Shown here: piece after piece, positions 26,213-49,266 of the stretch
Position numbering within the stretch: position 1 is the stretch's first letter
Layout of the letters: each line of letters begins with the position of its first letter
Source: Candidatus Enterosoma merdigallinarum
Lineage (GTDB): Bacteria > Bacillota_I > Bacilli_A > RFN20 > CAG-288
Assembly: GCA_018714385.1 (NCBI GenBank)
Contig: DVNL01000007.1
Location: 93,657 to 157,656, forward strand
Direction: 5' to 3'
DNA: 64,000 nt
Notes under the pieces: model-generated
Databases searched by the model: none
Seen by the model: the letters and a program-made list of their open reading frames with translations, nothing else
What the model was told of the DNA's origin: nothing
Program-made: the position numbers and the translations under genes

Positions 26213-27478
26213 TCAGAGATGGAGGGCGGAGGAGAGGGGATCTTGTTTGCAGGTATCGGGATCGTAGCCGTTCATGATGGCATATCTCTCATGCTCCCTG
26301 GAAAGGCTGATTTCCTGACGGGAGGCATCGATTTCAGCCATGTTGTGATAACTCAGACCATAGCCTCTCTCGCCGGCGAGGGAGTAGTAGCGATAGGCAA
26401 TCTCGAGATTCTTGGGGTTGGTGACCTTGGAACGATAGGCATCGCCGATGTAGTTGAGGGCAGGGGCATAGCCGAGTCTTGCGGCTTTGACGATGTGCTC
26501 GTGGCCGAGGGCTTCATTGTAGAAATAGGTGTCGGGGGAGAGATAGAGGAGTCCGAGGCGATATTCGGCGACGGAGGAACCGCGGGCGATGGCGATTTCG
26601 TAGTTGCTCTTGGCAAGCTCGAAGTTGGGGGAGACGAAGGAGGACTTGCCTTCGTAGAGATAGGCCAAGAGGACGGCGGCTCTCATGGAGCCTTCCTCGA
26701 CGGCGGTCTTCAGAAGCTCGACGCCATCGGCGACTTCCTTCTCGGTGGAGACAGGAGAGTCGATGAGACGGATGGCACGGATGAGAATCTGATCGCCTTC
26801 GATGACGGTCTGGACTTTCTTGCTGTCGGAAGTATAGGTCTTGCCTTCGGGTTTGACTTCGATAGCCTTCTCGACGGGCTTCTCCTCGACAGGCTCGGGC
26901 TTGGGCTCTTCGACGACGGCCTTCTCCTCGACAGGAGCGACGACGGGTTCGACAGGCTTTTCCTCGGGGGCAGCCTTTTCTTCGTGGGCGGCGACAGGGA
27001 ACGTCTCGGCAGCAGGAGCGGCCTCGACGACAGGCGTGGAAAGAGCGGGAGCCGTGGTGGCGGAACCGGAGGCGAGCTCCTTCTCGAGCTGGCTCAGTCT
27101 TTCCTTGGCGGCATCGTCGCCGAGCTCGATGGCTTTCTTATAGTATTCCATCGCCTTGTTCTTGTCGGCTTCCTCGGTTCCGAGGGCATAATTGTAATAA
27201 TCACCCATCTCGCGATAGTCGAGGCAATCGAGGGTGTTGCTGTCCGCTTTGGAGAAATAGCCATAAGCATTGTCATAGAACTTTCTGGCTTCATCGGCGT
27301 TGCCTTCAAGTCCAGGGATGCCTTCGCGGATGATCCGTCCGATCTCAAAGAAGGACTTGCCCTTGGTCGTGCCGTGTTTGGCGGATTTGTTGATCAGCTT
27401 GAGGGCTGTGTCGATCTTCTTTCCCTCGGCCAACAGGTTCAGACCGGCTTCCAGATTCTTATCCATGGTATAAGACAT
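26213..27478 (-). CDS. Sel1/TPR-like repeat protein with central Pro/Glu/Val-rich linker, cytoplasmic
   Basis: Sel1-type repeats (AMEYYKKAIELGDDAA; AEYRLGLLYL; APALNYIGDAYR) around the linker EEKAAPEEKPVEPVVAPVEEKAVVEEPKPEPVEEKPVEK. GGAGGA SD and a near-consensus promoter upstream. Confidence 0.8.
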   Translation of the reverse strand: MSYTMDKNLEAGLNLLAEGKKIDTALKLINKSAKHGTTKGKSFFEIGRIIREGIPGLEGNADEARKFYDNAYGYFSKADSNTLDCLDYREMGDYYNYALGTEEADKNKAMEYYKKAIELGDDAAKERLSQLEKELASGSATTAPALSTPVVEAAPAAETFPVAAHEEKAAPEEKPVEPVVAPVEEKAVVEEPKPEPVEEKPVEKAIEVKPEGKTYTSDSKKVQTVIEGDQILIRAIRLIDSPVSTEKEVADGVELLKTAVEEGSMRAAVLLAYLYEGKSSFVSPNFELAKSNYEIAIARGSSVAEYRLGLLYLSPDTYFYNEALGHEHIVKAARLGYAPALNYIGDAYRSKVTNPKNLEIAYRYYSLAGERGYGLSYHNMAEIDASRQEISLSREHERYAIMNGYDPDTCKQDPLSSALHL

Positions 27479-27650: not shown

Positions 27651-27679
27651 TTGAAGATAAATATCTTTTGTGGTATATT
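27651..27679 (+). promoter_or_regulatory. Sigma-A-type promoter of rplS
   Basis: TTGAAG (27651-27656), 17-nt spacer, then TGgTATATT (extended -10; hexamer at 27674-27679). Confidence 0.6.
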
Positions 27680-27775: not shown

Positions 27776-28258
27776 ATGAACAAGAACTTGGTTCAGCAGA
27801 TCACTGCCACCCAGATCCGCCACGACATCCCGGACTTCGTCACCGGCGATACCGTCCGTGTCATGGTCACCATCCGTGAAGGAAACAAGGAGAGACAGCA
27901 GGCCTTCGAAGGCGTCGTCATCTCCATCCGCGGAACGGGCGTCAGCAAGACCTTTGTCGTCAGAAAGGATTCTGCCGGCATCGGCGTCGAAAGAAACTTC
28001 TTTGTCAACTCCCCCGTCCTGGCTTCCATCACCGTCCTCAAGCACGGCAAGGTCAGAAGAAAGAAGATCTTCTACCTGAGAGACAGGAGAGGCAAGGCCG
28101 CCCGTCTGGAAGAGGTCATCCGCAAGGACAAGATCGCCGCCAACTTGGCCGCGACCAAGACCAACGCCGACAAGAAGAAGGCCGCCAACAGGGAGAAGGC
28201 CAAGGCCGCCAAGGAAGCCAAGGCTTCCGAGCAGGCCGCTGCTGCCGAAAGCAAGTAA
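27776..28258 (+). CDS. rplS: 50S ribosomal protein L19 with about 45-aa Lys/Ala-rich C-terminal extension
   Basis: [36 protein letters not shown] is the canonical L19 core. AAGGAG upstream of ATG 27776. The tail is [44 protein letters not shown]. Confidence 0.95.
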
Positions 28259-28308
28259 AGGACTTGCACCCAATCGATTCGTCTCATTTCAATCCATGTG
28301 ACAAACAA

Positions 28309-28330
28309 GCCGGCACTCGCCGGCTTTTTT
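28309..28330 (+). terminator. Terminator after rplS
   Basis: GCCGGC actc GCCGGC followed by TTTTTT. Confidence 0.8.
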
Positions 28331-28371: not shown

Positions 28372-30594
28372 ATGAAAAGAAAAATTTTCTTCCTTGTCTT
28401 CCTTCCTACCATGATTTTAATGGCTTCCTGTCAAGGAGAGGGATCTTCCCTTTCTTCTTCTTCTTCTTCTTCGTTGCCTCCATCTTCGACGGGAACAAGC
28501 CAGATAGCCCCGACAGTAGAAAGCTATGCCTTGGAAGTCTCCAGTCTTCCTTCCAAGACGACCTACAATCGCTATGACACCCTGGAACTTTCCGGCCTTG
28601 TCGTTCAGCTTGTCGGTCTGTCTAAAGAGGGAGAGGTCCTCAAGGCGGAAGCGTTCGACGACTACACGCTTTCCATGGATGCCGTTGAAGTCTCAGAAGG
28701 CTTCCTCTTGGCCACTTCGGGAATGAGAAAGACGATTACGGTTCTCTCGCAGAGCGAAGAATATCCGGGGCTGAGCACTTCCTTCACGATTCGAGTCAAT
28801 TCTCTCCAATCCATGAATCAGTGGCTGGAAATGGAGGGAGAGATTCCGACCTATTATTCTCTTGGCGACACCTTCTTACTGCCGGAGATCGCCTTCACTT
28901 TGAGGACGGAGAGAGTCGATATCGACGGAAACGTCCTCAAAAGCGAGACGCTCCTTTCCCTCGACGATCTTTCTTTCACGATCGATGGCGAGGATGCCGA
29001 AGGCTATTTCTTTGAAAATCCCGGACGTCATTCTTTCAAGGCGACAGTCGATGGACTGGAAGAAGAAATCGTTTTTGAAAGAACCATCTATTCGCTTGCA
29101 AAGGAAAATGCCGACCCTGATACATTTCCGGAAGAGGGAAAGCTGACTCCGGACGATTCAACGATGACCGTTCGTATCGTGCAAGACGAAGCGGATGCCA
29201 GTTTCGACAACTTCTACGCTCCGGAGGATGTCGTCATCGATTATGGCATCTACGAGTATGGAAAGAACGCCTATGACGAATGGGTCTATGCGCCGAGCAA
29301 GCCTCTGGAGGAAGCGACAGTGGCCAAAACACCGCTCTTGGTCGTCCCGGTCATTCTTCCGGGGGCGGAAAAGGAAGCCGACGAGTCGAAACGGGAACTC
29401 ATCCGGAAGACGTTCTTCGGCGCTTCCGGGGATCTCGCCTATGAGTCTCTTCACTCCTACTATTGGAAATCGTCCTTCGGGAAGCTGGACATCACCGGCA
29501 CTGTGACCGACTTCTTCTATGCCGGCGACATGAGCGACCTGCCTGCGACGGGATCTTTGACGCCTGCCCTTCTTTCCGACCTCGCCGAGGATGCCTGCGA
29601 ATGGGCAAAGACGGCCTACGACCTGGATTTCGACGATTACGACAGCGATGACGACGGCACCGTCGATGGCGTCTGGATGGTCTTCATCGGAAGGGAGAGC
29701 AACGACCTTTCCGGGTACTGGGGCCTTTCCGGGACCACCGGCTACAAAGGGACGAAAGAGGATCCTGCCGTCAACAACTATGGATTCATCGGCATGGACT
29801 TCATCGATGGCAGCTATTCTTCCGGCATGGACAAGGGAGGCGATGCCCATGTGGTCATCCACGAGACGGGACACATGCTCGGGCTGATGGATTACTACAG
29901 CTATGATGGCGACACCTACAGTCCACTCGGCGGTCTGGACGTCATGGACGGGGGAATCATGGATCACAATCCCTATTCCAAGATGCTCCTTGGATGGACC
30001 AAGCCGTACATCGTCTATGGCAATGCCGAGATCACGATCCCTTCCTGTCAGCAGGAGGATGCCCTTATCGTGATTCCTTACGAAGGGAAGACCTACGACG
30101 TCGATGCGGATGGAAAAGTCCATTTCAACCCGTTTGACGAATATCTCGTCCTGGATTATTACACGGATTCCAACTTCAATGCCGTCGGCTATGACTATGC
30201 CGGCGACTATCCGGTCCAAGGCGAGGGCGGAAGGCTTTACCACGTCGATTCCCGCCTTGCCTATCGTTCCGGAGCGGAATATCTTCTGTTCGAAAATCCC
30301 GATGACGCCCTCTCCTATGACGGCAAGGTCGCCAAGCTGATCACCAACTCCCGTACCTCCGAATATGGCGAGAGTGCCCTCGGTCTCAAGAATGCCGATG
30401 CCTTCGACGAAATCCGGTGGATCTCCAAGGATGGCGTCTATGTCGACTATGCCAAGGGAAAGCCCAACGAGGATGCGCTCTTCCTTCCCGGGGATATCTT
30501 CTCCCTTTCGGAATACGTCTCCCAGTTCGTCGACGGAAGCTTCGACAACGGGAAGGCATGCGATTATCGCTTCGAGATTCTCTCTATCGCCTGA
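28372..30594 (+). CDS. Lipoprotein: two Ig-like (Big_3-type) repeats + M6/InhA-like zinc metalloprotease domain (HExxH intact)
   Basis: Signal peptide with lipobox ILMAS|C and a poly-Ser linker. Ig-like repeats (YALEVSSLPSKTTYNRYDTLELSGLVVQLVG). Catalytic region HVVIHETGHMLGLMDYYSY ... GGLDVMDGGIMDHNPYSKMLLGW resembles the M6 family domain. Confidence 0.85.
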   Translation: MKRKIFFLVFLPTMILMASCQGEGSSLSSSSSSSLPPSSTGTSQIAPTVESYALEVSSLPSKTTYNRYDTLELSGLVVQLVGLSKEGEVLKAEAFDDYTLSMDAVEVSEGFLLATSGMRKTITVLSQSEEYPGLSTSFTIRVNSLQSMNQWLEMEGEIPTYYSLGDTFLLPEIAFTLRTERVDIDGNVLKSETLLSLDDLSFTIDGEDAEGYFFENPGRHSFKATVDGLEEEIVFERTIYSLAKENADPDTFPEEGKLTPDDSTMTVRIVQDEADASFDNFYAPEDVVIDYGIYEYGKNAYDEWVYAPSKPLEEATVAKTPLLVVPVILPGAEKEADESKRELIRKTFFGASGDLAYESLHSYYWKSSFGKLDITGTVTDFFYAGDMSDLPATGSLTPALLSDLAEDACEWAKTAYDLDFDDYDSDDDGTVDGVWMVFIGRESNDLSGYWGLSGTTGYKGTKEDPAVNNYGFIGMDFIDGSYSSGMDKGGDAHVVIHETGHMLGLMDYYSYDGDTYSPLGGLDVMDGGIMDHNPYSKMLLGWTKPYIVYGNAEITIPSCQQEDALIVIPYEGKTYDVDADGKVHFNPFDEYLVLDYYTDSNFNAVGYDYAGDYPVQGEGGRLYHVDSRLAYRSGAEYLLFENPDDALSYDGKVAKLITNSRTSEYGESALGLKNADAFDEIRWISKDGVYVDYAKGKPNEDALFLPGDIFSLSEYVSQFVDGSFDNGKACDYRFEILSIA
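28452..28472 (+). repeat. (TTC)7 trinucleotide microsatellite encoding a poly-Ser linker
   Basis: Read in frame as CTT (TCT)6 TCG = LSSSSSSS, immediately after the lipobox of the M6-like lipoprotein. Confidence 0.9.
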
Positions 30595-30600
30595 GAAAAA

Positions 30601-30627
30601 GGGTGCCATCGAAAGGGCACCCTTTTT
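30601..30627 (+). terminator. Terminator after the M6-like lipoprotein gene
   Basis: GGGTGCC atcgaaa GGGCACCC followed by TTTTT. Confidence 0.75.
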
Positions 30628-30635
30628 GATGCCGG

Positions 30636-30660
30636 AAAAAGGCCGACCCGAAGGCCGGCC
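30636..30660 (-). terminator. Terminator after lipoprotein paralogue A
   Basis: Minus strand GGCCGGCC ttcg GGTCGGCC followed by TTTTT. Confidence 0.65.
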
Positions 30661-30671
30661 ATATCGTCATT

Positions 30672-32204
30672 TCAGTTGCCTTGGAAGGCGTCCCAGGAGT
30701 CGAGGAAGTATTGAGGGAAGGTTGTGCTGTCGATGTCCTTGAGGGTGAAGGTGACGTGGTATTCGTCGCCGGAGACTCCGAAGCGGGCCTCGACCTTGTC
30801 GATCCGCCCGTCCTTGACAGTCAGGCTTAGGCCGTCGCCGTTTGTCTCCAGGGCTTCGGAGTTGACGCCGAGGAACCCGTTGTCGAAGTAGGAGCCGATG
30901 CTCTTGAAGAGCGAAGAATCCGGGGTGTAGACGCCGTTTTCCTCCGTGAACACGTTCGGGGAGACCTGGTCGAAGGAGGGGATGAGATCCTCCCAGGTGT
31001 CGATGACGTAGGGATAGCTGGAGGAGACGTAGATGACGGCCCAGTTCCATCCGAGTGTTCCGGAAAGATAGTTGTAGCCGAGCCATTTTCCGGCGAATTC
31101 GCCGCTCGTCTGCCTGGCGGCGACATAGTCGTAGTTATCGCCGGCTGTGTAAAGGGCGTCATCCTCGCCCTGATGGTAGAAGGCCAATCCCGCTTCGTTG
31201 TCGTAATAGGCGGTGGTGATGGTCTTTGTCTTTTTCGTCACGTTCTCGATCGTCTTGACGTAAGTGAAGTTCTTGGCATCCTTGAGGCAGTTCAACGCTG
31301 TCGCAAGATCCGGATTGTCGTTCGTGAGAGGGACGATGTGGGAAAGGACATTCTCGCCAAAGCGGCTGTAGGAGAGGCGAAGGGTGGAAGTGCGGGTGAA
31401 AGTCTCTCCGACGAGTTCGGGAGTGGTGAAGTCGACTGTCGCCACTTCGCCTTTCGAGTTGAGGTTGACGATGCAGTCGGTGACCCAGTTCACGGAAGTG
31501 GCCTTGTAGCACTCCGTCAGGAACTCCGCCTTGTCGAGAGCAAGATGGATGTTTCCGTCTTCTCCGTAATAAAGATCGTTCGCTGAGATGAAGTCCCAAG
31601 GGTTTCGGTAGTTGTTTTCGAAGACGATGGGGTCGTAGACGCCTGTCTCGGGATTGTATTCGGAAGGCAGGGATGTCGTGACCGAGTTGTCGATGTTGAG
31701 GACTTCGCTATAGGCTAAGCCCGTCTCGCTGTCCTCAAAGATCGTCAACGGCGTGATGTCGTAGACACGTGTGGCATTGGGATCGGGCTCGCCCGTTTCT
31801 TTGATGAGATCGGCGTTGGTGCGGGCGCCTTCCTCGTGATAGCCGCGCTCGATGGTGCCGTCTTCGAGCGTCTTGTAGCTGTAGGTGTAGTTGGCGTCGG
31901 TGCTGGTTTGCAAATCGGCAGTCAGGGGCGAATCGGGATGGAGGACCCGGACGGTGGAGGCGAGATTGACGATGTGGCTGTTGCGCTTCAGGCTGTTGAC
32001 CGCCGTGACGAACTCTTCTTCGGGCTCGGGTTCCGGCTCGATGGAGGGGGTAGAGGGAGCCGGCGTGGACGGGGACTGGGAGGAGGGCGTGTTAGAGGAG
32101 CCGGGGAGGGAAGAAGAAGGTTGAGAGGAAGAGTTGTTCTGGCAAGAGGCAATCAAGAGGAGGGAGGGCAGAAGAAGGAAAAGGGATTTCACTTTACTTT
32201 TCAT
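30672..32204 (-). CDS. Lipoprotein of unknown family (paralogue A of a tandem triplet)
   Basis: Lipobox LLLIAS|C and Ser/Pro-rich linker; 510 aa. Shares motifs with the two upstream genes (YRNPWDFISANDLY, NPDLATALNCLKDAKNFTY, SPNVFTEENGVYTPD). GGAG SD overlaps the stop of the preceding gene. Confidence 0.8.
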   Translation of the reverse strand: MKSKVKSLFLLLPSLLLIASCQNNSSSQPSSSLPGSSNTPSSQSPSTPAPSTPSIEPEPEPEEEFVTAVNSLKRNSHIVNLASTVRVLHPDSPLTADLQTSTDANYTYSYKTLEDGTIERGYHEEGARTNADLIKETGEPDPNATRVYDITPLTIFEDSETGLAYSEVLNIDNSVTTSLPSEYNPETGVYDPIVFENNYRNPWDFISANDLYYGEDGNIHLALDKAEFLTECYKATSVNWVTDCIVNLNSKGEVATVDFTTPELVGETFTRTSTLRLSYSRFGENVLSHIVPLTNDNPDLATALNCLKDAKNFTYVKTIENVTKKTKTITTAYYDNEAGLAFYHQGEDDALYTAGDNYDYVAARQTSGEFAGKWLGYNYLSGTLGWNWAVIYVSSSYPYVIDTWEDLIPSFDQVSPNVFTEENGVYTPDSSLFKSIGSYFDNGFLGVNSEALETNGDGLSLTVKDGRIDKVEARFGVSGDEYHVTFTLKDIDSTTFPQYFLDSWDAFQGN

Positions 32205-32216
32205 GTCGTTGTCTCC

Positions 32217-33491
32217 TTACAGGATGTCCAGGTCGATCCAGGCGGGGAGGGATGTCGTCCCGTAATCGGAGAAGCTGTCACGGAAGGTGACATTGTTCGC
32301 ACCGGCGATGACGCCGACGGCTTCCTGGACCTTGCCGTCGGAAAGGGTAACATATCCGCTGACGCCGTTTCCGCTTCCCATGCCGAAGGTGGACGGGATC
32401 ATGGCGCTGGCGCCATAGGCGGTCGCTTCGTCGATGAGGAGATAGAGTCCTTCTCTGTCTTCCTCGAAGAGGGCGGGAGAAATCGTGAACAAGCCATTGA
32501 GATATTGATCGACAGGGCTGACCCTGTTGATGCCTTCTTGGACGGGAAGGCCGTTTTCCATGCGGTAGACGGTGTAGATGCCGCCGGCTCCCGTACGATA
32601 GAGCCTATCATCGTTTTTTGGACCTTTGCTGCGGCTGTCGGCCTGGAAGTAGACAGCATCCTCGGTGACGAAGAGGCGGCTTTCTTTCTCCAGTCCGTTG
32701 GAGGAGAAACTGGCAGTGAAGTTGCTTCCGAAGCCTTCCAGGGCCGTTTTCAGGTCGGCGTTCTCGCGGGTGCTGGGGGAGAGGTGGTCGAATTCGGGAA
32801 TGTTTCTGTCGATTTCCACGACGACATCCATGGTCGAGACGATGTTGGCAAAGCCGCTATCGGTGGCAATGCCCATCTGCTTGTCGGCGATTTGGAATGT
32901 CATGCCGATGATTTCATCGCCATCCAGGACGAAGGAGGCGGAAAGGACATGACGATCGATTCCGGCCCATGTCTCAAGAAGGAAGGACGCTTTCTGGCTG
33001 TCCAGGGAGAGGTCTTCGCCGATATCGGAGACTTCGATGTAGTTGAAAGGATTGCGGAAGACGTCCGCATAGAGGATATCCATGCCAAGGGATCCGTAGG
33101 CGACGGTTCCGACGGTGTTGTCCGGAAGGAGGACTTCCTGGTAGGCTCCGTTGTTTTCGCCCCGGAAGTAGACTTCCGTGCGCGAGCCGATATATTCCCG
33201 GACGGCAGGAACGGATTTTCCCTCTTCGACGATATGGCCATAGTCTCGACGGAAGGAAGCGGAATAGCTTGTGTCGAGGAACTCATAGCCCTCGGGATAG
33301 ATGAGGGTCTCGGTATAGTTGCCCTGCACGCCATAGCCATCCTTCATCAAAGACAGAATCTGGGAAGGCGTCAATCCGGTCGCCGAGGCGCCGTTGGCCT
33401 TCTTGAGGAGCTCGGAGGTAGAGGCTCCTGCGCAGCCGGGAAGGGCGAGAAGGAGGGCGGGCAGGAGAAGGAACAGTTTATTCGTTTTCAT
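32217..33491 (-). CDS. Lipoprotein of unknown family (paralogue B)
   Basis: Start set to ATG 33491 (MKTNKLFLLLPALLLALPG|C). Motifs FRNPFNYIEVSDIG, NADLKTALEGFGSNFTA, SPALFEEDREGLYLLID and FSDYGTTSLP match paralogues A and C. Confidence 0.8.
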   Translation of the reverse strand: MKTNKLFLLLPALLLALPGCAGASTSELLKKANGASATGLTPSQILSLMKDGYGVQGNYTETLIYPEGYEFLDTSYSASFRRDYGHIVEEGKSVPAVREYIGSRTEVYFRGENNGAYQEVLLPDNTVGTVAYGSLGMDILYADVFRNPFNYIEVSDIGEDLSLDSQKASFLLETWAGIDRHVLSASFVLDGDEIIGMTFQIADKQMGIATDSGFANIVSTMDVVVEIDRNIPEFDHLSPSTRENADLKTALEGFGSNFTASFSSNGLEKESRLFVTEDAVYFQADSRSKGPKNDDRLYRTGAGGIYTVYRMENGLPVQEGINRVSPVDQYLNGLFTISPALFEEDREGLYLLIDEATAYGASAMIPSTFGMGSGNGVSGYVTLSDGKVQEAVGVIAGANNVTFRDSFSDYGTTSLPAWIDLDIL

Positions 33492-34980
33492 TTTGCACTC
33501 CAAAGATATTGAGGATGGCGATGTCGACCGCATCGGAAAGGGAATCGACCGTCCTCAAGTCGGTGGTTCCGAAGTCGGAGAAGGACGTTTGAGTGGTCTG
33601 AAGGGTGCCGGCCGTATCGAGATAGGTCAATTCGAAGGTGGGGTTCTCGGGTTTCGTGATATCGATGGTCAACGTCTTGAAGCCGAAGGTCAGGGCAACG
33701 CTGTCATCGACGTAGAACTGGGCGGAGATATGGGAGAGATAGTCGCCGACGCCGAGGATGGCCGTGAGGACCTCGATGGCAAATTCCCTGTTGTAGTGTT
33801 CGAAGGCGGAAAGGTCGAAACAATAGACACCTTCCTCCTCTTTTTCGAAGAATTCGGCGCTCAGTTGGGAAAGAGTCGGGATGGCCTGGGCGATGGAAGG
33901 ATAGAATTCGTTGCTGACCATGCCGAACTGGCCGGAGACCGGCGTGACGCCGACTGCCCAATAGCCGTAGGTGACTTGCTGGCTTTCGTCGCTTTGCCAG
34001 CCGTAGCCAAGGCCGGTGTAGACCGTCCCTGTCCCATCGTTGAGTCCGCCGAAGTCGGAGAGCATGAGGCCAAGGCCTTCTTCCATGTCGCCGGTGTAGG
34101 GGAGGTCGTAGTAATTGCGATAAATCGCCGGCAAACCGCTGTCGCCGGCTTCCGTCATGAGAACACGCTGGGTGAAGTTTCCGGAGCGGATGTTGTCGCC
34201 GAGGGTGTCGATGGCGTTTTGAAGGGCTTCTCTCTCCGAGGCAGGGAGGGTCGAGGCGATCGGGGCAAGACGCGGGATGGAAGGCAGGACCTCCAACGTG
34301 GCTTCGACGTGTTCCACGATGCCGCCATAGGCATCCGTCTTGACATGGTCGAAGGAAAGCGTTTCAGGAATTCCATTTTCATCAGCCGTGATGACGATAT
34401 CATCGGCATAGCTCGTAAGAGAATAAGAATCCCAAGTATAGGAGTCGTGCATGGGATAGAAGGCGTCAAGGCTTGTCGCCAAGATGGGTTCGCCATAGGC
34501 GCTCGGCAGGACACGATAGCCTTCTTCCGTCTCTTCAAGAGTGAAGAACTTGTCGATGTTGTCTTCGGTAAGGGCTTGGAAGGGGCTGCCGTAGGTGCTG
34601 TCGAAATCGATGAGCGTCGGTTCCGTCTTGCCGTCGTCCAAGGCCGTGGAGACGACATCGTTGTGGATGTTGAGCGTCTCTTCGATGGTATTGCCATCCT
34701 CATCACGGATATAGCTGTGTCTTTCGCCGATTCCGTTTCCGATGGCCGTCATCGTGTTCCTTGCCGTTTCCCCGACCTCATCGACGAGGCGGTATGTGGT
34801 GTCGCTATAGTTGCTGGTGATCTGGGCTTGGATGCGGACATCTCCGGAAAGGGAATCGAGGAGATTGTCGAGAACGACGGAATCGGCCTTTGGGGCCTTC
34901 TTGACAGGCGCAGTGGTGTCGAGCGTCTGGCATGCGGAAAGAAGGAGAACGGGAAGGACGAGCAATGCTTTCTTTTTCAT
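33478..34980 (-). CDS. Lipoprotein of unknown family (paralogue C)
   Basis: MKKKALLVLPVLLLSA|C lipobox. Motifs SAEFFEKEEEGVYCFD and FSDFGTTDLR are shared with B and A. The start ATG shares its A with the TGA of the upstream gene. Confidence 0.8.
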   Translation of the reverse strand: MKKKALLVLPVLLLSACQTLDTTAPVKKAPKADSVVLDNLLDSLSGDVRIQAQITSNYSDTTYRLVDEVGETARNTMTAIGNGIGERHSYIRDEDGNTIEETLNIHNDVVSTALDDGKTEPTLIDFDSTYGSPFQALTEDNIDKFFTLEETEEGYRVLPSAYGEPILATSLDAFYPMHDSYTWDSYSLTSYADDIVITADENGIPETLSFDHVKTDAYGGIVEHVEATLEVLPSIPRLAPIASTLPASEREALQNAIDTLGDNIRSGNFTQRVLMTEAGDSGLPAIYRNYYDLPYTGDMEEGLGLMLSDFGGLNDGTGTVYTGLGYGWQSDESQQVTYGYWAVGVTPVSGQFGMVSNEFYPSIAQAIPTLSQLSAEFFEKEEEGVYCFDLSAFEHYNREFAIEVLTAILGVGDYLSHISAQFYVDDSVALTFGFKTLTIDITKPENPTFELTYLDTAGTLQTTQTSFSDFGTTDLRTVDSLSDAVDIAILNIFGVQNENE

Positions 34981-36677
34981 CAGTTGGCCCTCCTGAGAGT
35001 AAGGACGGCGCTTCCGGAAGCCTCGTCGATGGACTTCACCGTGAAGGTGATGCCCAAGGCCGTGCCGCTGTCGAAGGCGAAATCCTTGTAGAAACCGGGG
35101 ACATCGCCTTGGTCGAAGGCATCCCCGGCGTGGAAGAGATCATCGTCGGAAAGGCTGACATTGAAATCCGTGATGTGACGGTTCATGCCTTTTTTGGAGA
35201 GGAGGGAGAGAAGAGGCTCCTTGTCCATGATGCCATACTCGCTAAGAGGGTTGACGGAAGAATTGGAGTGGCGATAGGCATAGCTGTATTTTTGCTGGCT
35301 CCCGTTTGCGGAGAGGTAGGTCGCCTCGTAGTCGGGCTCGCCGACATAGGGGACATACTGGTTCTCGCGGCCTCGGGCAAGGGTCGAATTGACCTCATAG
35401 ACGCGGATTCCGGCTTTGGAGAAGGTAGAACGGCCGTAGATGTAAGGCTCTTTGGCATCGGCCTGATTCAGGCCGGTAGGCGTATACAGGTCGACGAGAA
35501 GATATTCGCCATAGAGTCCGTCATCGGCATAGGAGAGGACGATCGGGCTTTCGGCGCTGACGGTGACATCGACGCCTTCGGCGGGAACGTTCTCGGGCGT
35601 GTAGACGCTGGGAGAGAGCCATCCCAATTGATATTTGCTGAAGGGGTTGTGGTCGCCGATATATCCGTCCATCCTATCGGTCATGGCAAGGGGGGCACGA
35701 TAGGTCTCGGTCGTGGAATTTCCCGTGAAGTCGTAATAGCTGTCCAGTCCCATCATGGCACCGACGAAATTGATGTAGAAGTGGGAATCCGGAATGAGAG
35801 GGATCTGCTCCAGTCCGTAGTGGATGATCGAGTAGTAGAGAGAGGCGAAGACGCTTGTCCAGGAGACGGAATTCACAGGGGCGGAGAGGGAGTCTTCAAA
35901 GAGAGAGGCGTCGGAGAGGAGAGCATCGTAGCTCGTGTCGCCCGTGGAAGAGATGCCGAACATCTGGTAGACGAGCAAAGAAAGCATCGGATTGACTAAG
36001 ACGATGCCGTCGATCTTTCCGTCGTCATCGCTGTCGAAATCGGCAGGATCATACGTCCTCGTCTCGTCGACGAAGAGATAGTCATAGACTTCGCTGGTGA
36101 CGCCGGAAAGGAATCCCGCCATCCCCTTGCTGCCGATCGTGGCGACGGCATCGTTGAGCGTCTCTTCGATTTCGACGACGGGAGTGGTGACACCGTCCAA
36201 GTGGAGATTGTATCCGCTCGATTCCTCATAGAATTCCTTGACGGAAGGGAAATCGGCGCCTTCTCCGAAGAAAGTGCCGTCGAGATTTTTGAGAAGCTGA
36301 TCATCGAAGACTTCACCGACGTCTTCCTGGTCGGAAAGCTGGACGGGAACGACCAGAAGATTGACATCGCCCAAAGAAGGCATGCCAGGCTTCCCTTGGG
36401 AAGCGTTGAGCCTGTTGAGGGCGCTTCTAGCCCCGATCGGATCTTTGACTTCCGGCTGTTTTGCGTCTTCCAAGGCGTCACTGCCCGGTGTCCAGGGTGT
36501 GCTGCTGGAAGAGGAGCTTCCCGGGGTGGAGGAACTGCTCACAGAGGAATTCGGCGTCGAAGGGGGCACGGTCGAAGTGCTGGAAGAGGGGCTGCTTTCC
36601 TGCCCTTGGCATCCGGCGAGAACCGCCAGACACAAAAGGAGAGAAGACAGTCCAATGGTTTTTTTCTTTTTTTCCAT
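34980..36677 (-). CDS. Lipoprotein: full-length paralogue of the M6-like protease with the HExxH motif destroyed (predicted pseudo-protease)
   Basis: Lipobox LAVLAG|C and Ser/Thr/Pro linker. Collinear with 28372-30594 (LLVVPVQLSD / LLVVPVILPG; DSDDDGKIDGIVLV / DSDDDGTVDGVWMV), but reads HFYINFVGAMMGLDSYYDF where the paralogue has HVVIHETGHMLGLMDYYSY. Start taken at ATG 36677 (MEKKKK, GGAG 5 nt upstream); the ORF-track start at 36692 is a TTG. Confidence 0.8.
   Translation of the reverse strand: MEKKKKTIGLSSLLLCLAVLAGCQGQESSPSSSTSTVPPSTPNSSVSSSSTPGSSSSSSTPWTPGSDALEDAKQPEVKDPIGARSALNRLNASQGKPGMPSLGDVNLLVVPVQLSDQEDVGEVFDDQLLKNLDGTFFGEGADFPSVKEFYEESSGYNLHLDGVTTPVVEIEETLNDAVATIGSKGMAGFLSGVTSEVYDYLFVDETRTYDPADFDSDDDGKIDGIVLVNPMLSLLVYQMFGISSTGDTSYDALLSDASLFEDSLSAPVNSVSWTSVFASLYYSIIHYGLEQIPLIPDSHFYINFVGAMMGLDSYYDFTGNSTTETYRAPLAMTDRMDGYIGDHNPFSKYQLGWLSPSVYTPENVPAEGVDVTVSAESPIVLSYADDGLYGEYLLVDLYTPTGLNQADAKEPYIYGRSTFSKAGIRVYEVNSTLARGRENQYVPYVGEPDYEATYLSANGSQQKYSYAYRHSNSSVNPLSEYGIMDKEPLLSLLSKKGMNRHITDFNVSLSDDDLFHAGDAFDQGDVPGFYKDFAFDSGTALGITFTVKSIDEASGSAVLTLRRAN
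36659..36673 (-). repeat. A7-G-A7 homopolymer pair directly after the start codon of the pseudo-protease lipoprotein gene
   Basis: Minus strand reads ATG G AAAAAAA G AAAAAAA CC (MEKKKKT). The plus strand shows T7 c T7 at 36659-36673. Confidence 0.9.
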
Positions 36678-36794
36678 AGAGTCTCCATTCAAAAAAGTTC
36701 GCGCCGATTATACAAGAAAGGGCAGAAAAAGGAAAAATAATAATTAAGGTTAGGGCCAAATGTCATGATGTAAGCGGTTATCCCGAGAGAATTG

Positions 36795-36823
36795 TAGACT
36801 TGATATTATCAATACACTATAAT
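36795..36823 (+). promoter_or_regulatory. Promoter of the Big_2 lipoprotein gene
   Basis: TAGACT (36795-36800), 17-nt spacer, TATAAT (36818-36823). Confidence 0.45.
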
Positions 36824-36852
36824 CCCGCTATCAGACTTTTAGGAGGAAACTC

Positions 36853-38436
36853 ATGAAAAAGATTCATAGAATCGCTTCTCTTGCCCTGCTTCTTTCCGGC
36901 ATCGGATTGGCTTCTTGCGGGAACGGCGCCTCTTCGTCTTCCGCCACACCAACGCCTGCCCCTTCCACGCCTGCTTCCAGCTCGTCTTCGCCGTCCACTC
37001 CTGCGCCCTCAAGTCCTTCTTCCCCCTCTTCTCCATCCTCCCCTTCGTCTCCCTCTTCCTCGACCCCGGAACCGGATCCGGGTCCGACTGTTCAGGAGCA
37101 GTTTGCCGACTTTGCCGATTATATCGTGACGGACGTTCTCTCCAAGGACATCCTGGAAGTCACGTTTTCCGAGACGAACACGCAAGACGGAATCAACAAC
37201 AGGGTTCGCACGAGCAAATTCGGTGTCGATGAGATCTATACGACGGTCGAAACAAAAGACGACAATTATCAATACGCCTCGATTCGAGATGGTGTCTATT
37301 ACACTGCAACGCTGTCCAATTCTGAAAGAAACGTTAGCAGACAAAAGATCTCGACTTCGACAGGAGCTGACACGATCACTCAGGAAGTCGCTGAGAACAC
37401 CTTGAATGCATACATGCAAATCGGATCGCTTGAAGGATCGGGCGTGTTCGATGTCTTCTATGGCGAAGAGGTCATTGCCGACACCTTCTCCGATGAGACG
37501 GATGGCGGTGTCCGCACGGTCACCATCGGCGCCTATGACGAATCCGGCGATGGTTTCAATTATTCCTATACGGCCATATTGGAACTTAACGAGGATGACG
37601 AGATTCTTTCTCTCACGTCCAGCACCCAGTGGGCTTTCGATGATTATTGGGACGATGCCACGCATAGTCCGATCGCCGGAAGCAAAGAGGCCTATAGTTC
37701 GCTTGTCGTCATCGAAGAAGGAGACATCGTCTTCGGCACTTATGATCCCGAGGCCCCCCTACTTTACGATTTCTCCGGCGATTTCATCACCAGCGTGGAA
37801 GCCTACGTCACGGCAGAAAGCACTGACATGGGCGGCGGATCTACCGGTGAAAGGAATGTTCTCCAGGTCGGAGATTATCCTTTGGTCCATGTTGAGTCTT
37901 ACCTTCCTGTCACGGCGATGGAAGACACTTCCAGCGTCGTGATCCTTTCTTCCAGCGACACGGGAGTCATCGGATACGATGACTTTGGCTCCTTCTATGC
38001 CAAAGGCATCGGCCATGCCACGTTGACTGTCGGCAATATCTTCAACGCGAACCTCGGCACGATCGAGGTCGAGGTCGTCGAGGCGTCCTCCGTCGACACG
38101 AACCCGCCGTCGATCGGATTCACCATTACGGGCGATGGGTATGAGGACGTTTATGATCAGAGCAATCCGGATCTGTGGGGACGTTTCACCATCAGTCTTG
38201 CCAATGGCCCTGTTGTCTTCCGGGCCGACACGATGACACCGCCTCCCTTCGACATCGAGGGTGACGAGATTTCGTCTCAAAATGCCGGCATTGCCACGGC
38301 GGTGTTCCAGAATCCGACCGATACCACGGGGATGTTCGTCGACATTGTCATCACTCCGGTCTCTGTCGGAAAGACCATCATCACGATTCCGTCAGCGATG
38401 GGTTCACATCAGTACGAAGTCGTCGTTGAAGCCTAA
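36853..38436 (+). CDS. Lipoprotein with long Ser/Pro linker and two Big_2-like Ig domains
   Basis: Lipobox GIGLAS|C. Linker SSSSATPTPAPSTPASSSSSPSTPAPSSPSSPSSPSSPSSPSSSTPEPDPGP. C-terminal Ig-like modules (SSSDTGVIGYDDFGSFYAKGIGHATLTVGN; GIATAVFQN...VSVGKTIITIP). AGGAGG SD, and a strong terminator downstream. Confidence 0.8.
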   Translation: MKKIHRIASLALLLSGIGLASCGNGASSSSATPTPAPSTPASSSSSPSTPAPSSPSSPSSPSSPSSPSSSTPEPDPGPTVQEQFADFADYIVTDVLSKDILEVTFSETNTQDGINNRVRTSKFGVDEIYTTVETKDDNYQYASIRDGVYYTATLSNSERNVSRQKISTSTGADTITQEVAENTLNAYMQIGSLEGSGVFDVFYGEEVIADTFSDETDGGVRTVTIGAYDESGDGFNYSYTAILELNEDDEILSLTSSTQWAFDDYWDDATHSPIAGSKEAYSSLVVIEEGDIVFGTYDPEAPLLYDFSGDFITSVEAYVTAESTDMGGGSTGERNVLQVGDYPLVHVESYLPVTAMEDTSSVVILSSSDTGVIGYDDFGSFYAKGIGHATLTVGNIFNANLGTIEVEVVEASSVDTNPPSIGFTITGDGYEDVYDQSNPDLWGRFTISLANGPVVFRADTMTPPPFDIEGDEISSQNAGIATAVFQNPTDTTGMFVDIVITPVSVGKTIITIPSAMGSHQYEVVVEA

Positions 38437-38441
38437 GAGTC

Positions 38442-38473
38442 AGCCGGTCCCGACGGGCCGGCTTTTTCTTTTT
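38442..38473 (+). terminator. Terminator after the Big_2 lipoprotein gene
   Basis: AGCCGGTCCC gac GGGCCGGCT followed by TTTTCTTTTT. Confidence 0.8.
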
Positions 38474-38495: not shown

Positions 38496-38524
38496 TTGAC
38501 ACCTGCCTCTTTTGGCGGTATATT
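38496..38524 (+). promoter_or_regulatory. Sigma-A-type promoter of rpsP-khpA-rimM-trmD
   Basis: TTGACA (38496-38501), 17-nt spacer, TATATT (38519-38524), right after a strong terminator. Confidence 0.6.
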
Positions 38525-38559: not shown

Positions 38560-38856
38560 ATGGTCAAAATCAGACTTGCCAGAATCGGAAGAAAGGCTCT
38601 TCCTTCCTACAGAATCGTTGTCAGCGATTCCAGAAAGACCCCTCGTTCCGACAATCTCGCCGACCTCGGCTATTTCGATCCCAAGACCCACAACTTCAAC
38701 ATCGACGAAGAAGAGGCCCTCAAGTGGCTCAACCACGGTGCCATCCCCTCGGATTCCGTCAAGACTCTTCTGACGAAGAAGGGCATCTACAAGAAGTTCG
38801 TCGACGCCAAGATCGCTGCCAGGAAGGCCGCCAAGGCTAACAGCGAGGCGAAGTAA
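38560..38856 (+). CDS. rpsP: 30S ribosomal protein S16 (short Lys/Ala-rich tail)
   Basis: MVKIRLARIGRKALPSYRIVV start is canonical S16. GGAGG lies upstream. Confidence 0.95.
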   Translation: MVKIRLARIGRKALPSYRIVVSDSRKTPRSDNLADLGYFDPKTHNFNIDEEEALKWLNHGAIPSDSVKTLLTKKGIYKKFVDAKIAARKAAKANSEAK

Positions 38857-38858
38857 GA

Positions 38859-39176
38859 ATGAACACAGGAACTGATATCGATCTCACCCAAGATATCCGC
38901 TCCCTCGTCGAACCCCTTGTCAGCAATCCCGAGAAGGTCATCATCCAGAGAATGGACAAGCCCGAATATCGGACGCGCAGGGAACAGAACTATCTCATCC
39001 TTTGCGAGAAGGACGACTTGGGGAAGCTGATCGGACGTCATGGAGTCATTTCCGACTCCCTCAGGACCATCCTCAATGTTTCTATCAAGAACATGAGGAA
39101 GAAGGTCCATCTGCGCTTTGAGTCCTATAGCGACTACAAGGCCAGCCATCCGGATTTCGTCCCGGAGCAGGAATAA
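38859..39176 (+). CDS. khpA: KH-domain RNA-binding protein KhpA (YlqC/UPF0109)
   Basis: KH motif DDLGKLIGRHGVISDSLRTIL. Conserved position between rpsP and rimM. Confidence 0.85.
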   Translation: MNTGTDIDLTQDIRSLVEPLVSNPEKVIIQRMDKPEYRTRREQNYLILCEKDDLGKLIGRHGVISDSLRTILNVSIKNMRKKVHLRFESYSDYKASHPDFVPEQE

Positions 39177-39232
39177 CAGATGCGGAAGGGGGAGCCAAGC
39201 TCCCTCTTTCCTTTCGGAAAGGAAAAAAGACA

Positions 39233-39730
39233 ATGGCAATCAAGAACATCGGAAAAATCGTCAATACCTTCGGAATCAAGGGACAACTCAAGATTTCCAT
39301 CTCCACCTCGACACCGGAGACGCGATTTGCTGTAGGAAAGAAAATCCTCATCGATGATGAGACCGGGATCGAGAAGGAATACGTCATCTCCTCTTTCCGG
39401 ATGAAGGGAGACAGGATTGCCATCATCGGACTGGAAGGCTATGACGACATCAACGACATCGAATGGATGGTCGGCAGGATCGTCAAGGAAAACGTCCGGG
39501 CCCCGAAGGGGACTTTCTTCTACGACGACCTCGTCGGCATGGACATCGTCGACCATGAAGGGAACGTCTATGGAAAGGTCGAGACCGTCAACAAGATGCC
39601 GGCCGGCGACTATCTCGTCTCCGGAAAGTCCTATATCCCCTTCAAGGAGGGCATCTTCATCGAGTCCGTCGACAAGAAGGAGAAGAAGATCGTCCTGACG
39701 GCGCTTGGAAGCGAGGTTCTCGCGAGGTGA
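39233..39730 (+). CDS. rimM: 16S rRNA processing protein RimM
   Basis: IGKIVNTFGIKGQLKI N-terminal barrel and a PRC barrel (FYDDLVGMDIVDHEGNVYGKV). Confidence 0.9.
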   Translation: MAIKNIGKIVNTFGIKGQLKISISTSTPETRFAVGKKILIDDETGIEKEYVISSFRMKGDRIAIIGLEGYDDINDIEWMVGRIVKENVRAPKGTFFYDDLVGMDIVDHEGNVYGKVETVNKMPAGDYLVSGKSYIPFKEGIFIESVDKKEKKIVLTALGSEVLAR

Positions 39731-40512
39731 AAATCACCATATTGACGATCTTTCCGGACTTCTTCGACAAGTTTCTGGACTCCTCCATCGTCAAAAGAGC
39801 GATCGCCAAGGGCGTGGTCTCTTTCGAGATCGTCAATATCCGCGATTATTCCCTGGACAAAAACCATCGGGTGGACGATCATCCTTTCGGAGGCGGAGCA
39901 GGGCTTGTCATGCGGTTGGAACCCCTTGTCGGTGCCTTGAGAGCCCATTCTGGGAAAGACACCCACAAGATCTTTCTGGGGCCGAGAGGCAAGAGATATT
40001 CCCAGGAGGATGCCATCCGTCTGAGCTGGAAAGAGGACATTCTTTTGGTCTGCGGCCATTACGAAGGTGTCGACTCCCGTTTTCTGGACTATGTCGACGA
40101 GGAGATCTCCCTCGGCGACTTCGTCTTGACGGGAGGGGAAATCGCGGCAATGGCCGTTGCCGACAGCGTCACGAGGCTTCTCAAGGGAGCCATCAGCGAG
40201 GAGTCGACCAAAGAGGAGTCCTTCGACGGCTCGCTTCTGGAATACGATCAATACACCTATCCTGTCGAGTTCGAGGGGAAAAAGGTTCCGGATATTCTCT
40301 TCTGCGGAAACCATGAGGCCGTCAAGGAATATCGAAGGAAGGAAAGCCTTCGAATCACATATGAAAAAAGAAGGGACCTTTTCGACAGGGCCCCTTACGA
40401 TAGGAAAGACTACGAATATCTCCAGGAACTGAAGAAAGGGAAAAAGACTTTGTCCCGCCGCGAGAAAGACGCCTTGGAAAAAGGAAAACGCTTCGTCCCG
40501 GAGTCGGAGTGA
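39727..40512 (+). CDS. trmD: tRNA (guanine37-N1)-methyltransferase
   Basis: ILTIFPDFFD, DDHPFGGGAGLVM and a GRYEG-like CGHYEGVD. The GTG start at 39727 overlaps the rimM TGA. Confidence 0.95.
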   Translation: MKITILTIFPDFFDKFLDSSIVKRAIAKGVVSFEIVNIRDYSLDKNHRVDDHPFGGGAGLVMRLEPLVGALRAHSGKDTHKIFLGPRGKRYSQEDAIRLSWKEDILLVCGHYEGVDSRFLDYVDEEISLGDFVLTGGEIAAMAVADSVTRLLKGAISEESTKEESFDGSLLEYDQYTYPVEFEGKKVPDILFCGNHEAVKEYRRKESLRITYEKRRDLFDRAPYDRKDYEYLQELKKGKKTLSRREKDALEKGKRFVPESE

Positions 40513-40514
40513 GC

Positions 40515-41021
40515 TTACTTTTCGCTCTTTTGGAAGGCTTCCTTGGGATTGATGCGGAATGTCAAGTCGCGCAGGACGATGTCTTCCGTCTTTCCGGCGA
40601 TCCCGGTCGATAAAGTCACCGTGTCGATGGACGTGAAGCCGAGGCGGTGATAGAGTTTCAATGCCCGGACGTTGTTCGGTGAAACCTCGATCTGCACTCT
40701 CTCGTTGTCTTTTGCCAAGACCATCTTCTTGATTTCTTCGATGGCGAAGGTCGCCAGGCCCTTTCCCCGGAAGGCTTTGTCGATATAGAGATATTCGATG
40801 TTGTTGAGATAGCCGTACTTTTCATTCACATAGATGAAGCCGGCGATGTCATCGCCGTGACAGACGAGCCTTCCGATCCCTTTCGGATCGAGCATGCGGC
40901 GGATGTCCTCCAGGACATCGCTTTCGCTCGGCGAACAAAGCTGACTCTTCCAGAAAGCCATCAAAAGCTCGGAAAGACGGGAAATGTCCCTCAATTCGAT
41001 TTTTCTCAAAGTGTTTTTCAT
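40515..41021 (-). CDS. GNAT-family N-acetyltransferase
   Basis: Motif A YIDKAFRGKGLATFAIEEI and RALKLYHRLGF. Its stop is 2 nt from the convergent trmD stop. No SD; an extended -10 lies 9 nt upstream of the ATG. Confidence 0.85.
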   Translation of the reverse strand: MKNTLRKIELRDISRLSELLMAFWKSQLCSPSESDVLEDIRRMLDPKGIGRLVCHGDDIAGFIYVNEKYGYLNNIEYLYIDKAFRGKGLATFAIEEIKKMVLAKDNERVQIEVSPNNVRALKLYHRLGFTSIDTVTLSTGIAGKTEDIVLRDLTFRINPKEAFQKSEK

Positions 41022-46903: not shown

Positions 46904-47155
46904 CTAGATGAGGAAGGTGATCAGGTCCACCAGAAGGAAGACGATCGCCGTGATCATGAAGTACATCCAGAACTCTTTGTACCGGTAGAAATGCTTTCTG
47001 TCATAGCGGGAGCTCATCAATGCCAGGAGGAAGGAGAGGACGAGGGAAGTGATCATCGTCGCCAGATAGGCGTTTCCGCCCAAGGAGCCGACGAGCATGG
47101 AGATGATGGCGTTGACAACGAGACAGACAAAGAGCCATATGACGAAGGAAACCAT
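46904..47155 (-). CDS. Small hypothetical membrane protein (83 aa, 3 TM)
   Basis: MVSFVIWLFVCLVVNAIISMLVG... The ATG lies 1 nt after the ftsY TGA, with GGAGG inside the ftsY 3' end; the stop is 1 nt before the ylxM start. The remaining 5' part of ORF 46904-47476 is Ser/Arg-rich antisense junk. Confidence 0.55.
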   Translation of the reverse strand: MVSFVIWLFVCLVVNAIISMLVGSLGGNAYLATMITSLVLSFLLALMSSRYDRKHFYRYKEFWMYFMITAIVFLLVDLITFLI

Positions 47156-47156
47156 G

Positions 47157-48593: not shown

Positions 48594-49266
48594 CTACCCT
48601 TTTCGAGAGGGCATCCCGTGCCGAGGCCATTTCGGCCTCCTTGATGTTGTGCCCTTTTCCGACACCGAGGACGGTGCCTTTCACCCTCGCCTCGACGACG
48701 TAGCAGACATCCGGGGAGTTGAGGTTCTTCTGGTCGACGCAGACATAGTCGATGTTGCTGATGAGGATTTCTTGGAGACGGCTCTTCGGATCGGAATTGT
48801 CCAGTTCCTTGAGGAGGTCGGGAATGACGGGGACATAGATGTCCAAAAGAAGCCTTTCGGCGAAGGCGAAGCCCTGGTCGAGGTAGACGGCGCCGATGAA
48901 GGCTTCGAAGATATCCTCATTGATATGCTTGTGGAAGCGGGTATTGCCTTTCTCGCCGACGGAATAACGGACGAGGCTTGCAAAACCGAACCTGTTTTCG
49001 GAGAAGTCCGTCAATGTCTTGCCTTCGACCAAGAGGGCCCGGACCTTGGAAAGCTGGCCGGAATTGAGCGTCGGAAAGTTTTTGTAGGCGTAGCTTGCGA
49101 TGACCAGATCCAGGACGGCGTCTCCGAGGAACTCCAGTCTGTCGTAGCTAGGGCTGTTGGGATGCTCGTTTGTGTAGGAGGCGTGCGTAAAGGCCATCTC
49201 GTAGAGGGAGACGTCCTTCGGGACGATGCCAAAACGCCCAAGGAGGGCATCAAGGCCCTCAATCAT
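48586..49266 (-). CDS. rnc: Ribonuclease III
   Basis: FTHASYTNEH...YDRLEFLGDAVLDL signature and a C-terminal dsRBD. Start at ATG 49266 (MIEGLD) overlaps the plsX stop. Confidence 0.92.
   Translation of the reverse strand: MIEGLDALLGRFGIVPKDVSLYEMAFTHASYTNEHPNSPSYDRLEFLGDAVLDLVIASYAYKNFPTLNSGQLSKVRALLVEGKTLTDFSENRFGFASLVRYSVGEKGNTRFHKHINEDIFEAFIGAVYLDQGFAFAERLLLDIYVPVIPDLLKELDNSDPKSRLQEILISNIDYVCVDQKNLNSPDVCYVVEARVKGTVLGVGKGHNIKEAEMASARDALSKRVGD

Follow-up and report, generated by a model that had tools for sequence, protein, structure and literature searches.

Pairings of a surface binder with a hydrolase are already known in outline from the MIB-MIP, PrtP/PrtM, Sus-like, and TbpB systems. 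The MIB-MIP system of Mycoplasma consists of an immunoglobulin-binding protein and an immunoglobulin protease in tandem, of which MIP is a DUF31 serine protease, and the lipoprotein PrtM matures PrtP. Peptidase family M6 is that of immune inhibitor A (InhA) of Bacillus and PrtV of Vibrio. Here we describe a block of six lipoprotein genes in Candidatus Enterosoma merdigallinarum, which lies within a 64,000-nt stretch of contig DVNL01000007.1 (GCA_018714385.1, positions 93,657-157,656 of the forward strand), hereafter called the window. The conserved unit of this block comprises four genes, encoding an M6-like pseudoprotease (M6d) and three mutually related lipoproteins (C, B, and A); an M6-like metalloprotease with an intact zinc motif (M6a) and a sixth lipoprotein (designated 'Ig') are accessories. 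The parts are of known kinds, namely an M6-like protease, a pseudoenzyme, a LolA-like fold, and surface lipoproteins, while the family of the A/B/C triplet is undescribed and has no Pfam model. In the literature, no paper describing this gene combination was found. A preliminary description, made from the letters of this DNA, had placed six open reading frames (ORFs) at the following coordinates and strands, with which the ORF list agrees.

28372..30594, plus strand: M6a, predicted divergent M6-like Zn-metalloprotease lipoprotein (ORF, TIGR03296 match, HETGHMLGLMD)
30672..32204, minus strand: A, predicted lipoprotein, last gene of the core operon (ORF)
32217..33491, minus strand: B, predicted lipoprotein, paralogue of A (ORF)
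33478..34980, minus strand: C, predicted lipoprotein, the most divergent of the A/B/C paralogues (ORF)
34980..36677, minus strand: M6d, predicted M6-like pseudoprotease lipoprotein, first gene of the core operon (ORF, homology to M6a)
36853..38436, plus strand: sixth predicted lipoprotein ('Ig'), divergent from the core (ORF)

Comparative loci (numbered with the prefix L) were fetched, and the family hidden Markov models were run on all of them. The scan, with one genome per species, gave at least 541 M6a-like loci. The records kept are nearly all metagenome-assembled genomes of uncultured gut bacteria, mostly labelled Bacilli, Bacillales, Firmicutes, or Mollicutes, and also include 'Ca. Enterosoma' and 'Clostridium sp. 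CAG:568'. In the closest relatives (L001/L002/L003/L008, L004, and L007), the same block lies between rplS and rpsP-KH-rimM-trmD, and M6a, A, B, C, and M6d are 45-58% identical to their counterparts in the window, the sixth protein being less so. The module also occurs in L011 and L071, where the flanks contain neither rplS nor rpsP. M6d-C-B-A, referred to below as the core, is found in the same order in L005, L092, L093, L094, L095, and L096, some of which were retrieved by a metagenome scan with M6d. The core proteins are approximately 27% to 58% identical to the window proteins in the loci measured, and the core is embedded in unrelated flanks in L005, L011, L071, L093, L094, and L096. In all 12 lineages with a dead M6 gene of this type, C adjoins M6d, and B and A come next as far as the contig extends. 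The C-B-A triplet was absent from every locus with an active M6 gene only (about 77 loci in the genome scan, 31 in the metagenome scan). An active M6 protease gene adjoins the core in 6 of 11 lineages, in five of them directly after A on the same strand; it is not beside the core in L005, L092, L093, L094, and L096. The expected co-occurrence of active M6, dead M6, and triplet thus stood for the last two, whose linkage is fixed, but not for the active enzyme. The view of the block as a dedicated cell-surface module rather than a chance cluster is borne out: across a dozen diverged lineages, and in varied contexts, the same families recur in unchanged order.

The genes on the far side of A differ among lineages. 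The gene after A encodes a protein with Endonuclease I and Big_2 domains in L096 (L096:5307-7292). In L005, A is followed by an 819-aa lipoprotein, a 708-aa lipoprotein, and then a subtilase with S8 and PA domains (L005:9907-13818). In L011, a GH97 lipoprotein with collagen-like repeats and a GH2 enzyme lie after M6a (L011:12314-20170).

A second and more widespread lipoprotein operon was observed in gut Bacilli (L045, L047, L053, L060, L062, and L071; for example, L071:9896-19596). It begins with two tandem M6-like lipoproteins of about 580 and 520 aa, followed by lipoproteins of about 550, 650, and 950 aa and sometimes by a further one of about 1000 aa. Big_2 is present in the ~950-aa protein of L071, the only one scanned. 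HExxH is usually intact in both M6 genes; the first gene has lost it in L053 and L062. The L071 operon directly follows M6d-C-B-A, in a fusion of the two.

All six proteins of the block begin with a K/R-rich n-region, a hydrophobic core, and a lipobox Cys, as the preliminary description had reported. The lipoboxes, judged as a signal peptide ending in [LVI][ASTVIP][GAS]C, are MASC (M6a), IASC (A), LPGC (B), LSAC (C), LAGC (M6d), and LASC (sixth protein), and they lie within the first 17-27 residues from the chosen starts; that of B has an unusual Pro at position -2. By these features, all six are predicted lipoproteins, with lipidation and Lsp cleavage as the predicted processing. When all ORFs of 120 aa or more in the window were scanned with a regular expression, no other credible lipoprotein emerged, which indicates that the clustering is not a background property of the genome. 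Ser/Thr/Pro-rich linkers, which had been ascribed to all six, are not a feature of B and C, where the linkers are short and of other composition. The four minus-strand genes are closely coupled. Direct reading recovered the junctions described earlier: M6d and C share one base between stop and start (TGATG at 34980), C and B overlap by 14 nt (33478-33491), and the stop codon of B lies inside the Shine-Dalgarno sequence of A (TAAGGAG), 6 nt 5' of the A start. The true start of B is the ATG at 33491 rather than that at 33533, as the orthologues align from residue 1. Such overlapping or Shine-Dalgarno-embedded junctions imply co-translation. In L092 (413-3278) and L093 (7110-9976), B and C have signal peptides without the lipobox Cys, while the Cys is kept by A in both loci and by M6d in L093 (M6d is partial in L092). 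This loss of the anchor is consistent with B and C being kept at the surface by their partner subunits. The surface proteins of the window and L008 share 46-55% identity, against 82-90% for rimM, KH, and rpsP; the lower identity of the former is typical of exposed proteins.

M6d had been described as a collinear, non-catalytic paralogue of M6a, and the comparison agrees. The two proteins share 29% identity (E=8e-17), M6d itself matches TIGR03296 (E=1e-6), and the HETGH of M6a corresponds to INFVG in M6d, so that both His residues and the Glu of HExxH are replaced. The motif is likewise missing from the M6d orthologues aligned or scanned in L001, L004, L007, L011, L071, L093, L094, and L095. 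In a motif alignment of six orthologues, the flanking DSH..MMGL..Y.D..PL..D.MDG..GD residues are retained. The clear homology to M6a together with the lost HExxH identifies M6d as a pseudoprotease of the M6-like family, and the conservation of the flanking residues despite this loss indicates, at the sequence level, that its fold is maintained under selection.

M6a matches TIGR03296 with E=5.7e-23 and has an intact HExxHxxGxxD, consistent with the earlier call of an M6/InhA-like Zn-protease; the score of 82.2 bits is under the curated cut-off of 110.8. A Pfam scan of M6a gave no match, PF05547 included, while 11 of 26 aligned relatives match PF05547 (best E=7e-7). Across all six proteins, Pfam and NCBIfam returned the M6 domain hits and nothing else. 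Homologues of M6a numbered 59, some with PF05547 or the JGI name 'M6 family metalloprotease-like'. The motif HETGHMLGLMD spans residues 497-507, and all 26 relatives share its H, E, H, G, and D. A profile of the M6a family against the PDB sequences retrieved M7 snapalysins only, over the region of the zinc motif. The M6-like assignment follows from the TIGR03296 match, the PF05547 matches of relatives, and the invariant motif; accordingly, M6a is described as a divergent, lipid-anchored M6-like metalloprotease of predicted activity. The Ig-like repeats attributed to this protein are supported indirectly, by Big_3 hits in 2 of the 26 homologues; in its own N-terminus, Pfam detected neither Big_2 nor Big_3. 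Of the six other module-bearing lineages, five have M6a in the opposite orientation, and L004 shares the inverted orientation of the window. The idea that it is an invertible, phase-variable segment was rejected, since no inverted repeats flank it and the same orientation occurs in L004.

The relationship among A, B, and C, which the preliminary description had noted together with the lack of any assignable motif, is supported by profile-profile comparison. Pairwise BLAST linked A and B only (E=3e-9), and C matched the B-like protein of L005 (E=4e-6). When the orthologue alignments were compared with hhalign, the probabilities were 99.9% for A-B (E=2e-34), 98.2% for A-C (E=5e-14), and 97.3% for B-C (E=2e-11), over 326-381 columns and thus nearly the whole length. 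The three proteins are therefore homologous and deeply diverged, and each is kept everywhere, which argues for non-redundant roles. Among 70 diverse members of the triplet family, Pfam assigned no family at E<=0.01, including none of the LolA clan (LolA, LolB, LppX_LprAFG, and MucB_RseB). The family profile matched PDB sequences in the signal-peptide region only, and a metagenome scan with alignment A7 returned no relatives. An exhaustive HMMER search of 1.84 billion representatives (clusters at 50% identity) found 209 representative clusters, 64 of them with E<1e-30. This count corrects the impression of an extremely rare family given by a word-index search for A, which had returned 9 clusters only. 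It had been envisaged that the triplet might fall into a well-characterised family and that its association with M6-like genes might not be conserved; instead, it has no Pfam family and stands in a fixed M6d-C-B-A order.

The structure prediction and Foldseek check suggested for the triplet was run on A and pointed to a LolA/LprG/EPDR1-like fold. The AlphaFold2 (AF2) model, built on an 11-sequence alignment, has a mean predicted local distance difference test (pLDDT) score of 82.1 and a predicted template modelling (pTM) score of 0.70. Residues 1-57 are disordered in the model, consistent with a Ser/Pro tether; beyond them lie two beta-rich halves, in which the secondary-structure elements come in the same order. 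Against the PDB, Foldseek gave a probability of 1.00 to the LolA chains 2w7q, 8v1k, 9gtx, 7arm, and 9c89 (template modelling (TM) scores 0.39-0.47 by target) and 0.99 to LprG (3mha), with EPDR1 among the matches at 0.99-1.00. Over all LolA, LprG, and EPDR1 matches, the target-normalised TM scores are 0.34-0.47 across about 200-250 aligned columns. TbpB chains also gave low Foldseek E-values, with TM scores of only 0.10-0.12. From the model, A is assigned a LolA/LprG-like unclosed barrel in at least one half, and the topology indicates that both halves are probably of this kind. B and C are assigned the same fold by their homology to A. The top matches (LolA, LprG, and EPDR1) all bind ligands or partners, and the fold suggests that the triplet binds either a hydrophobic ligand or a partner protein. 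In one member of the A family (P0009, L006:411-2210), the tether is separated from the first lobe by an additional N-terminal domain of about 100 aa.

The sixth lipoprotein, which has a long Ser/Pro tether, had been described as Big_2-like. Pfam gave no hit of any kind in this protein or in seven relatives, even at E<=1, and neither Big_2 nor Big_3 in any of eight relatives. An hhalign comparison of its family with two verified Big_2 segments gave a weak match at residues 332-400 (probability 44%, E=2.4e-4), so that residues ~330-410 may form a Big_2-like domain. The AF2 model of this protein was unusable (pLDDT 31), and a word-index search returned 3 hits, probably swamped by the low-complexity linkers. 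Orthologues in L001, L004, L007, L011, and L071 make the protein recognisable in six lineages, with one weak match in addition; flanking lipoproteins of L005 and L093 were considered as relatives and rejected after comparison. The sixth lipoprotein is a lineage-specific accessory.

Taken together, the fixed gene order, the coupling, the three retained paralogues, the non-catalytic fold, and the loss of anchors in B and C find their simplest explanation in a hetero-oligomeric surface assembly with distinct subunit roles. We propose, at somewhat short of an even chance, that M6d-C-B-A forms a binding assembly at the surface, with a pseudoprotease as its base, and would probably feed neighbouring surface hydrolases; the complex, its ligand, and its substrate are what we infer here. 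The products of M6d, C, B, and A would form a 1:1:1:1 complex on the membrane's outer face. In this arrangement, the pseudoprotease would serve as a non-catalytic scaffold and substrate-binding subunit, and A, B, and C would bind a hydrophobic or lipid-bearing ligand or else partner proteins, each in a non-redundant role. Host or dietary macromolecules captured by the assembly would be passed to a neighbouring surface hydrolase, the purpose being nutrient scavenging. The role put forward in the preliminary description, a harvest of host proteins or glycoproteins, is plausible. In the window, the receiving hydrolase would be the putative active Zn-protease M6a. Candidates elsewhere are the Endonuclease I and Big_2 protein of L096, directly after A, and, further downstream, the S8 and PA subtilase of L005 and the GH97/GH2 enzymes of L011. 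These varied hydrolases near the core suggest that a capture assembly may serve whichever surface enzyme the lineage possesses. The fuller formulation is doubtful as a whole: a new Gram-positive capture machine of wall-reduced gut Bacilli, in which a pseudoprotease-nucleated hetero-oligomer with three LolA-like lipoproteins would deliver lipid-bearing or other macromolecules to interchangeable hydrolases.

Several observations weigh against this proposal. The gene after A encodes a PALP protein in L093, a Carb_kinase protein, on the other strand, in L094, and in L092 a patatin-like protein that lacks an evident signal; these are not obvious surface hydrolases, which makes the step of feeding a neighbouring hydrolase weak. 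The LolA-like assignment belongs to a predicted model with moderate TM scores (0.34-0.47), whose matches cover for certain only one half of A, and the two halves have no mutual sequence similarity (hhalign probability 2%), so that no duplication is detectable at the sequence level. Distant members of the LolA-like family also occur as tandem pairs without an adjacent M6 gene (L053:2244-8442 and L090:1281-6984). These members, in L090 and upstream in L053, indicate that the family does not require an association with proteases. The neighbours of the tandem pairs are CotH-like proteins, BspA-type leucine-rich repeat proteins, or large Big_2 lipoproteins.

The same distant members would also be expected if A, B, and C carry fatty acids, sterols, or lipids from the host or diet to a bacterium presumed to be limited in lipid synthesis, the proteases only stripping or docking protein-lipid particles. 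All of the high-probability Foldseek matches are binders of lipids or acyl chains (LolA, LprG bound to phosphatidylinositol mannoside, and EPDR1), and the hosts are uncultured gut Bacilli, some labelled 'Mollicutes'. Lipid carriage alone does not account for the strict linkage between C-B-A and a pseudoprotease, seen in 12 of 12 lineages. We regard this explanation as unlikely. A role centred on the protease itself, in which M6d and the LolA-like lipoproteins mature, allosterically activate, or inhibit the active M6 enzyme, would suit the position of M6a directly after A on the same strand in five lineages, and dead paralogues that regulate active relatives are generally known. Moreover, GerS, a LolA-like lipoprotein of the Firmicute C. 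difficile, allosterically activates a hydrolase, the CwlD amidase (bioRxiv 10.1101/2025.01.13.632879). However, the core lacks an adjacent active M6 gene in 5 of 11 lineages, genes for active M6 lipoproteins occur without the core in hundreds of cases (at least 541 loci), and three paralogues plus a pseudoenzyme would be much machinery for one enzyme. Such control is decidedly unlikely.

Immune evasion is a further consideration, as M6 is the InhA family, the proteins are surface-exposed and evolve faster than their housekeeping neighbours, and the organisms are gut-associated. The module would then bind and cut host immunoglobulin, mucosal defence proteins, or antimicrobial peptides in a MIB-MIP- or InhA-like manner. 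There is no similarity to MIB or MIP, Pfam scans detected no immunoglobulin-binding domain, and the active protease is missing from the locus in about half of the lineages, which leaves this explanation a slim prospect. The notion of a fortuitous lipoprotein cluster, or of a recent mobile island in a ribosomal-protein neighbourhood, draws on the terminator-bracketed position of the block between rplS and rpsP. It is contradicted by the conserved synteny, with order and content kept over 12 lineages in differing contexts, and the position itself is common to relatives whose orthologues are only 45-58% identical. The G+C content of the block (0.53-0.57) equals that of the remaining window, there is no integrase and no tRNA gene, and no inverted repeats flank M6a, the sole segment searched for them. 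This origin is highly improbable, and the binding assembly on M6d remains the account that we favour.

The boundaries of the block and its regulatory features are as follows.

28307..28326, plus strand: terminator-like hairpin after rplS, left boundary (8-bp stem, 6 GC pairs, T-run)
30601-30627, plus strand, and 30660-30641, minus strand: two back-to-back hairpins between the convergent M6a and A
36766-36737, minus strand, and 36795-36823, plus strand: divergent promoter-like sites in the 175-nt intergenic region (10/12 matches each)
38442..38463, plus strand: terminator-like hairpin, right boundary (9-bp stem, 7 GC pairs)
38496-38524: rpsP promoter (11/12 match), followed by rpsP-KH-rimM-trmD at 38560-40512, 3' of the right hairpin

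The hairpins at the two ends confirm that the block is bracketed by terminators. Between M6a and A, the plus-strand hairpin was found by eye, and the minus-strand one has an 8-bp stem with 7 GC pairs. The minus-strand promoter-like site faces the core operon and the plus-strand site faces the sixth gene, both within 36693-36852. Near-consensus promoters had been attributed to both rplS and rpsP; the rpsP site deserves the term, but the rplS site (27651-27679) matches at only 9 of 12 positions, with a TG. A tRNA scan of the window found none, and Rfam at the gathering threshold returned nothing across the whole 64 kb, including no ribosomal-protein leader before rplS or rpsP.

The rplS gene (~27776-28258), identified from PF01245-annotated orthologues at the syntenic position, lies 5' of the block, and rpsP-KH-rimM-trmD lies 3' of it. 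The canonical operon order in E. coli and Bacillus is rpsP-rimM-trmD-rplS. In the window, trmD is followed by a convergent gene for a GNAT acetyltransferase (40515-41021), where rplS would be expected. The block had been described as an island wedged into one ribosomal neighbourhood. It does adjoin rplS and rpsP, but the canonical order excludes a simple insertion into one operon and marks the block as a rearranged junction. This position is common only to the window and three close relatives (L001, L004, and L007). Among the other genes of the window, a 421-aa Sel1-repeat protein (26213-27478, minus strand) has a long Ala/Pro/Glu/Val-rich central linker, and its gene adjoins rplS in close relatives. 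Two consecutive ORFs of about 680 aa (41153-45177, plus strand), with a 49-nt overlap in the ORF list, each encode an N-terminal ABC ATPase domain, the first with a weak C-terminal match to an FtsX-like permease (E=0.35). A 515-aa ORF at 47097-48644 (plus strand) has no Pfam match at E<=1.

The guts of humans and animals commonly harbour uncultured, Mollicutes-related Bacilli, whose surface biology is almost unknown. The module provides a new Pfam-less protein family with a confidently predicted fold, as well as a clear natural case of a selected pseudoprotease strictly linked to its putative binding partners. As a small, testable operon, it could reveal how gut Bacilli obtain nutrients or molecules of the host. 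Lipid or lipoprotein binding by the LolA-like trio, if it occurs, would give the LolA fold in monoderms roles beyond those of LprG/LppX and GerS.

Each of the described systems resembles the module in part. Like InhA and PrtV of peptidase family M6, M6a has an M6 domain match and HExxHxxGxxD; it differs in scoring below the curated cut-off, in being predicted to be lipid-anchored rather than secreted, and in its pairing with a conserved, catalytically dead paralogue. The modelled fold of A is like that of LolA, LolB, LprG, LppX, and EPDR1, unclosed beta-barrels that bind acyl chains or lipids. Like LprG and LppX, and in contrast to a periplasmic carrier, A is predicted to be a lipoprotein in an envelope of the monoderm or mycolate kind. 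Unlike these proteins, which consist of a single domain of about 180 aa, A, B, and C are two-lobed in the predicted structure and 420-510 aa long, form a fixed paralogue trio behind a pseudoprotease, and have no sequence similarity to the LolA clan. MIB-MIP shares the concept of a surface binder beside a protease in a Mollicutes-related, host-associated bacterium; the families are unrelated, and in the module the linked 'protease' is dead and the active one optional. The GerS-CwlD pair, in which a Firmicutes LolA-like lipoprotein binds a hydrolase instead of carrying lipid, is a precedent for a partner-binding role. Unlike A, B, and C, GerS is small, forms a strand-swapped homodimer, is specific to sporulation, and has an amidase partner; no homology was detected between them. 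TbpB, HphA, and the Sus-like sets also contain lipid-anchored, beta-rich, two-lobed binders that capture macromolecules, but they belong to diderms and operate with an outer-membrane transporter, whereas the M6d-C-B-A module encodes no transporter. If the proposal is true, the module would be a capture machine functionally like the Sus-like or TbpB-type systems, built from unrelated parts.

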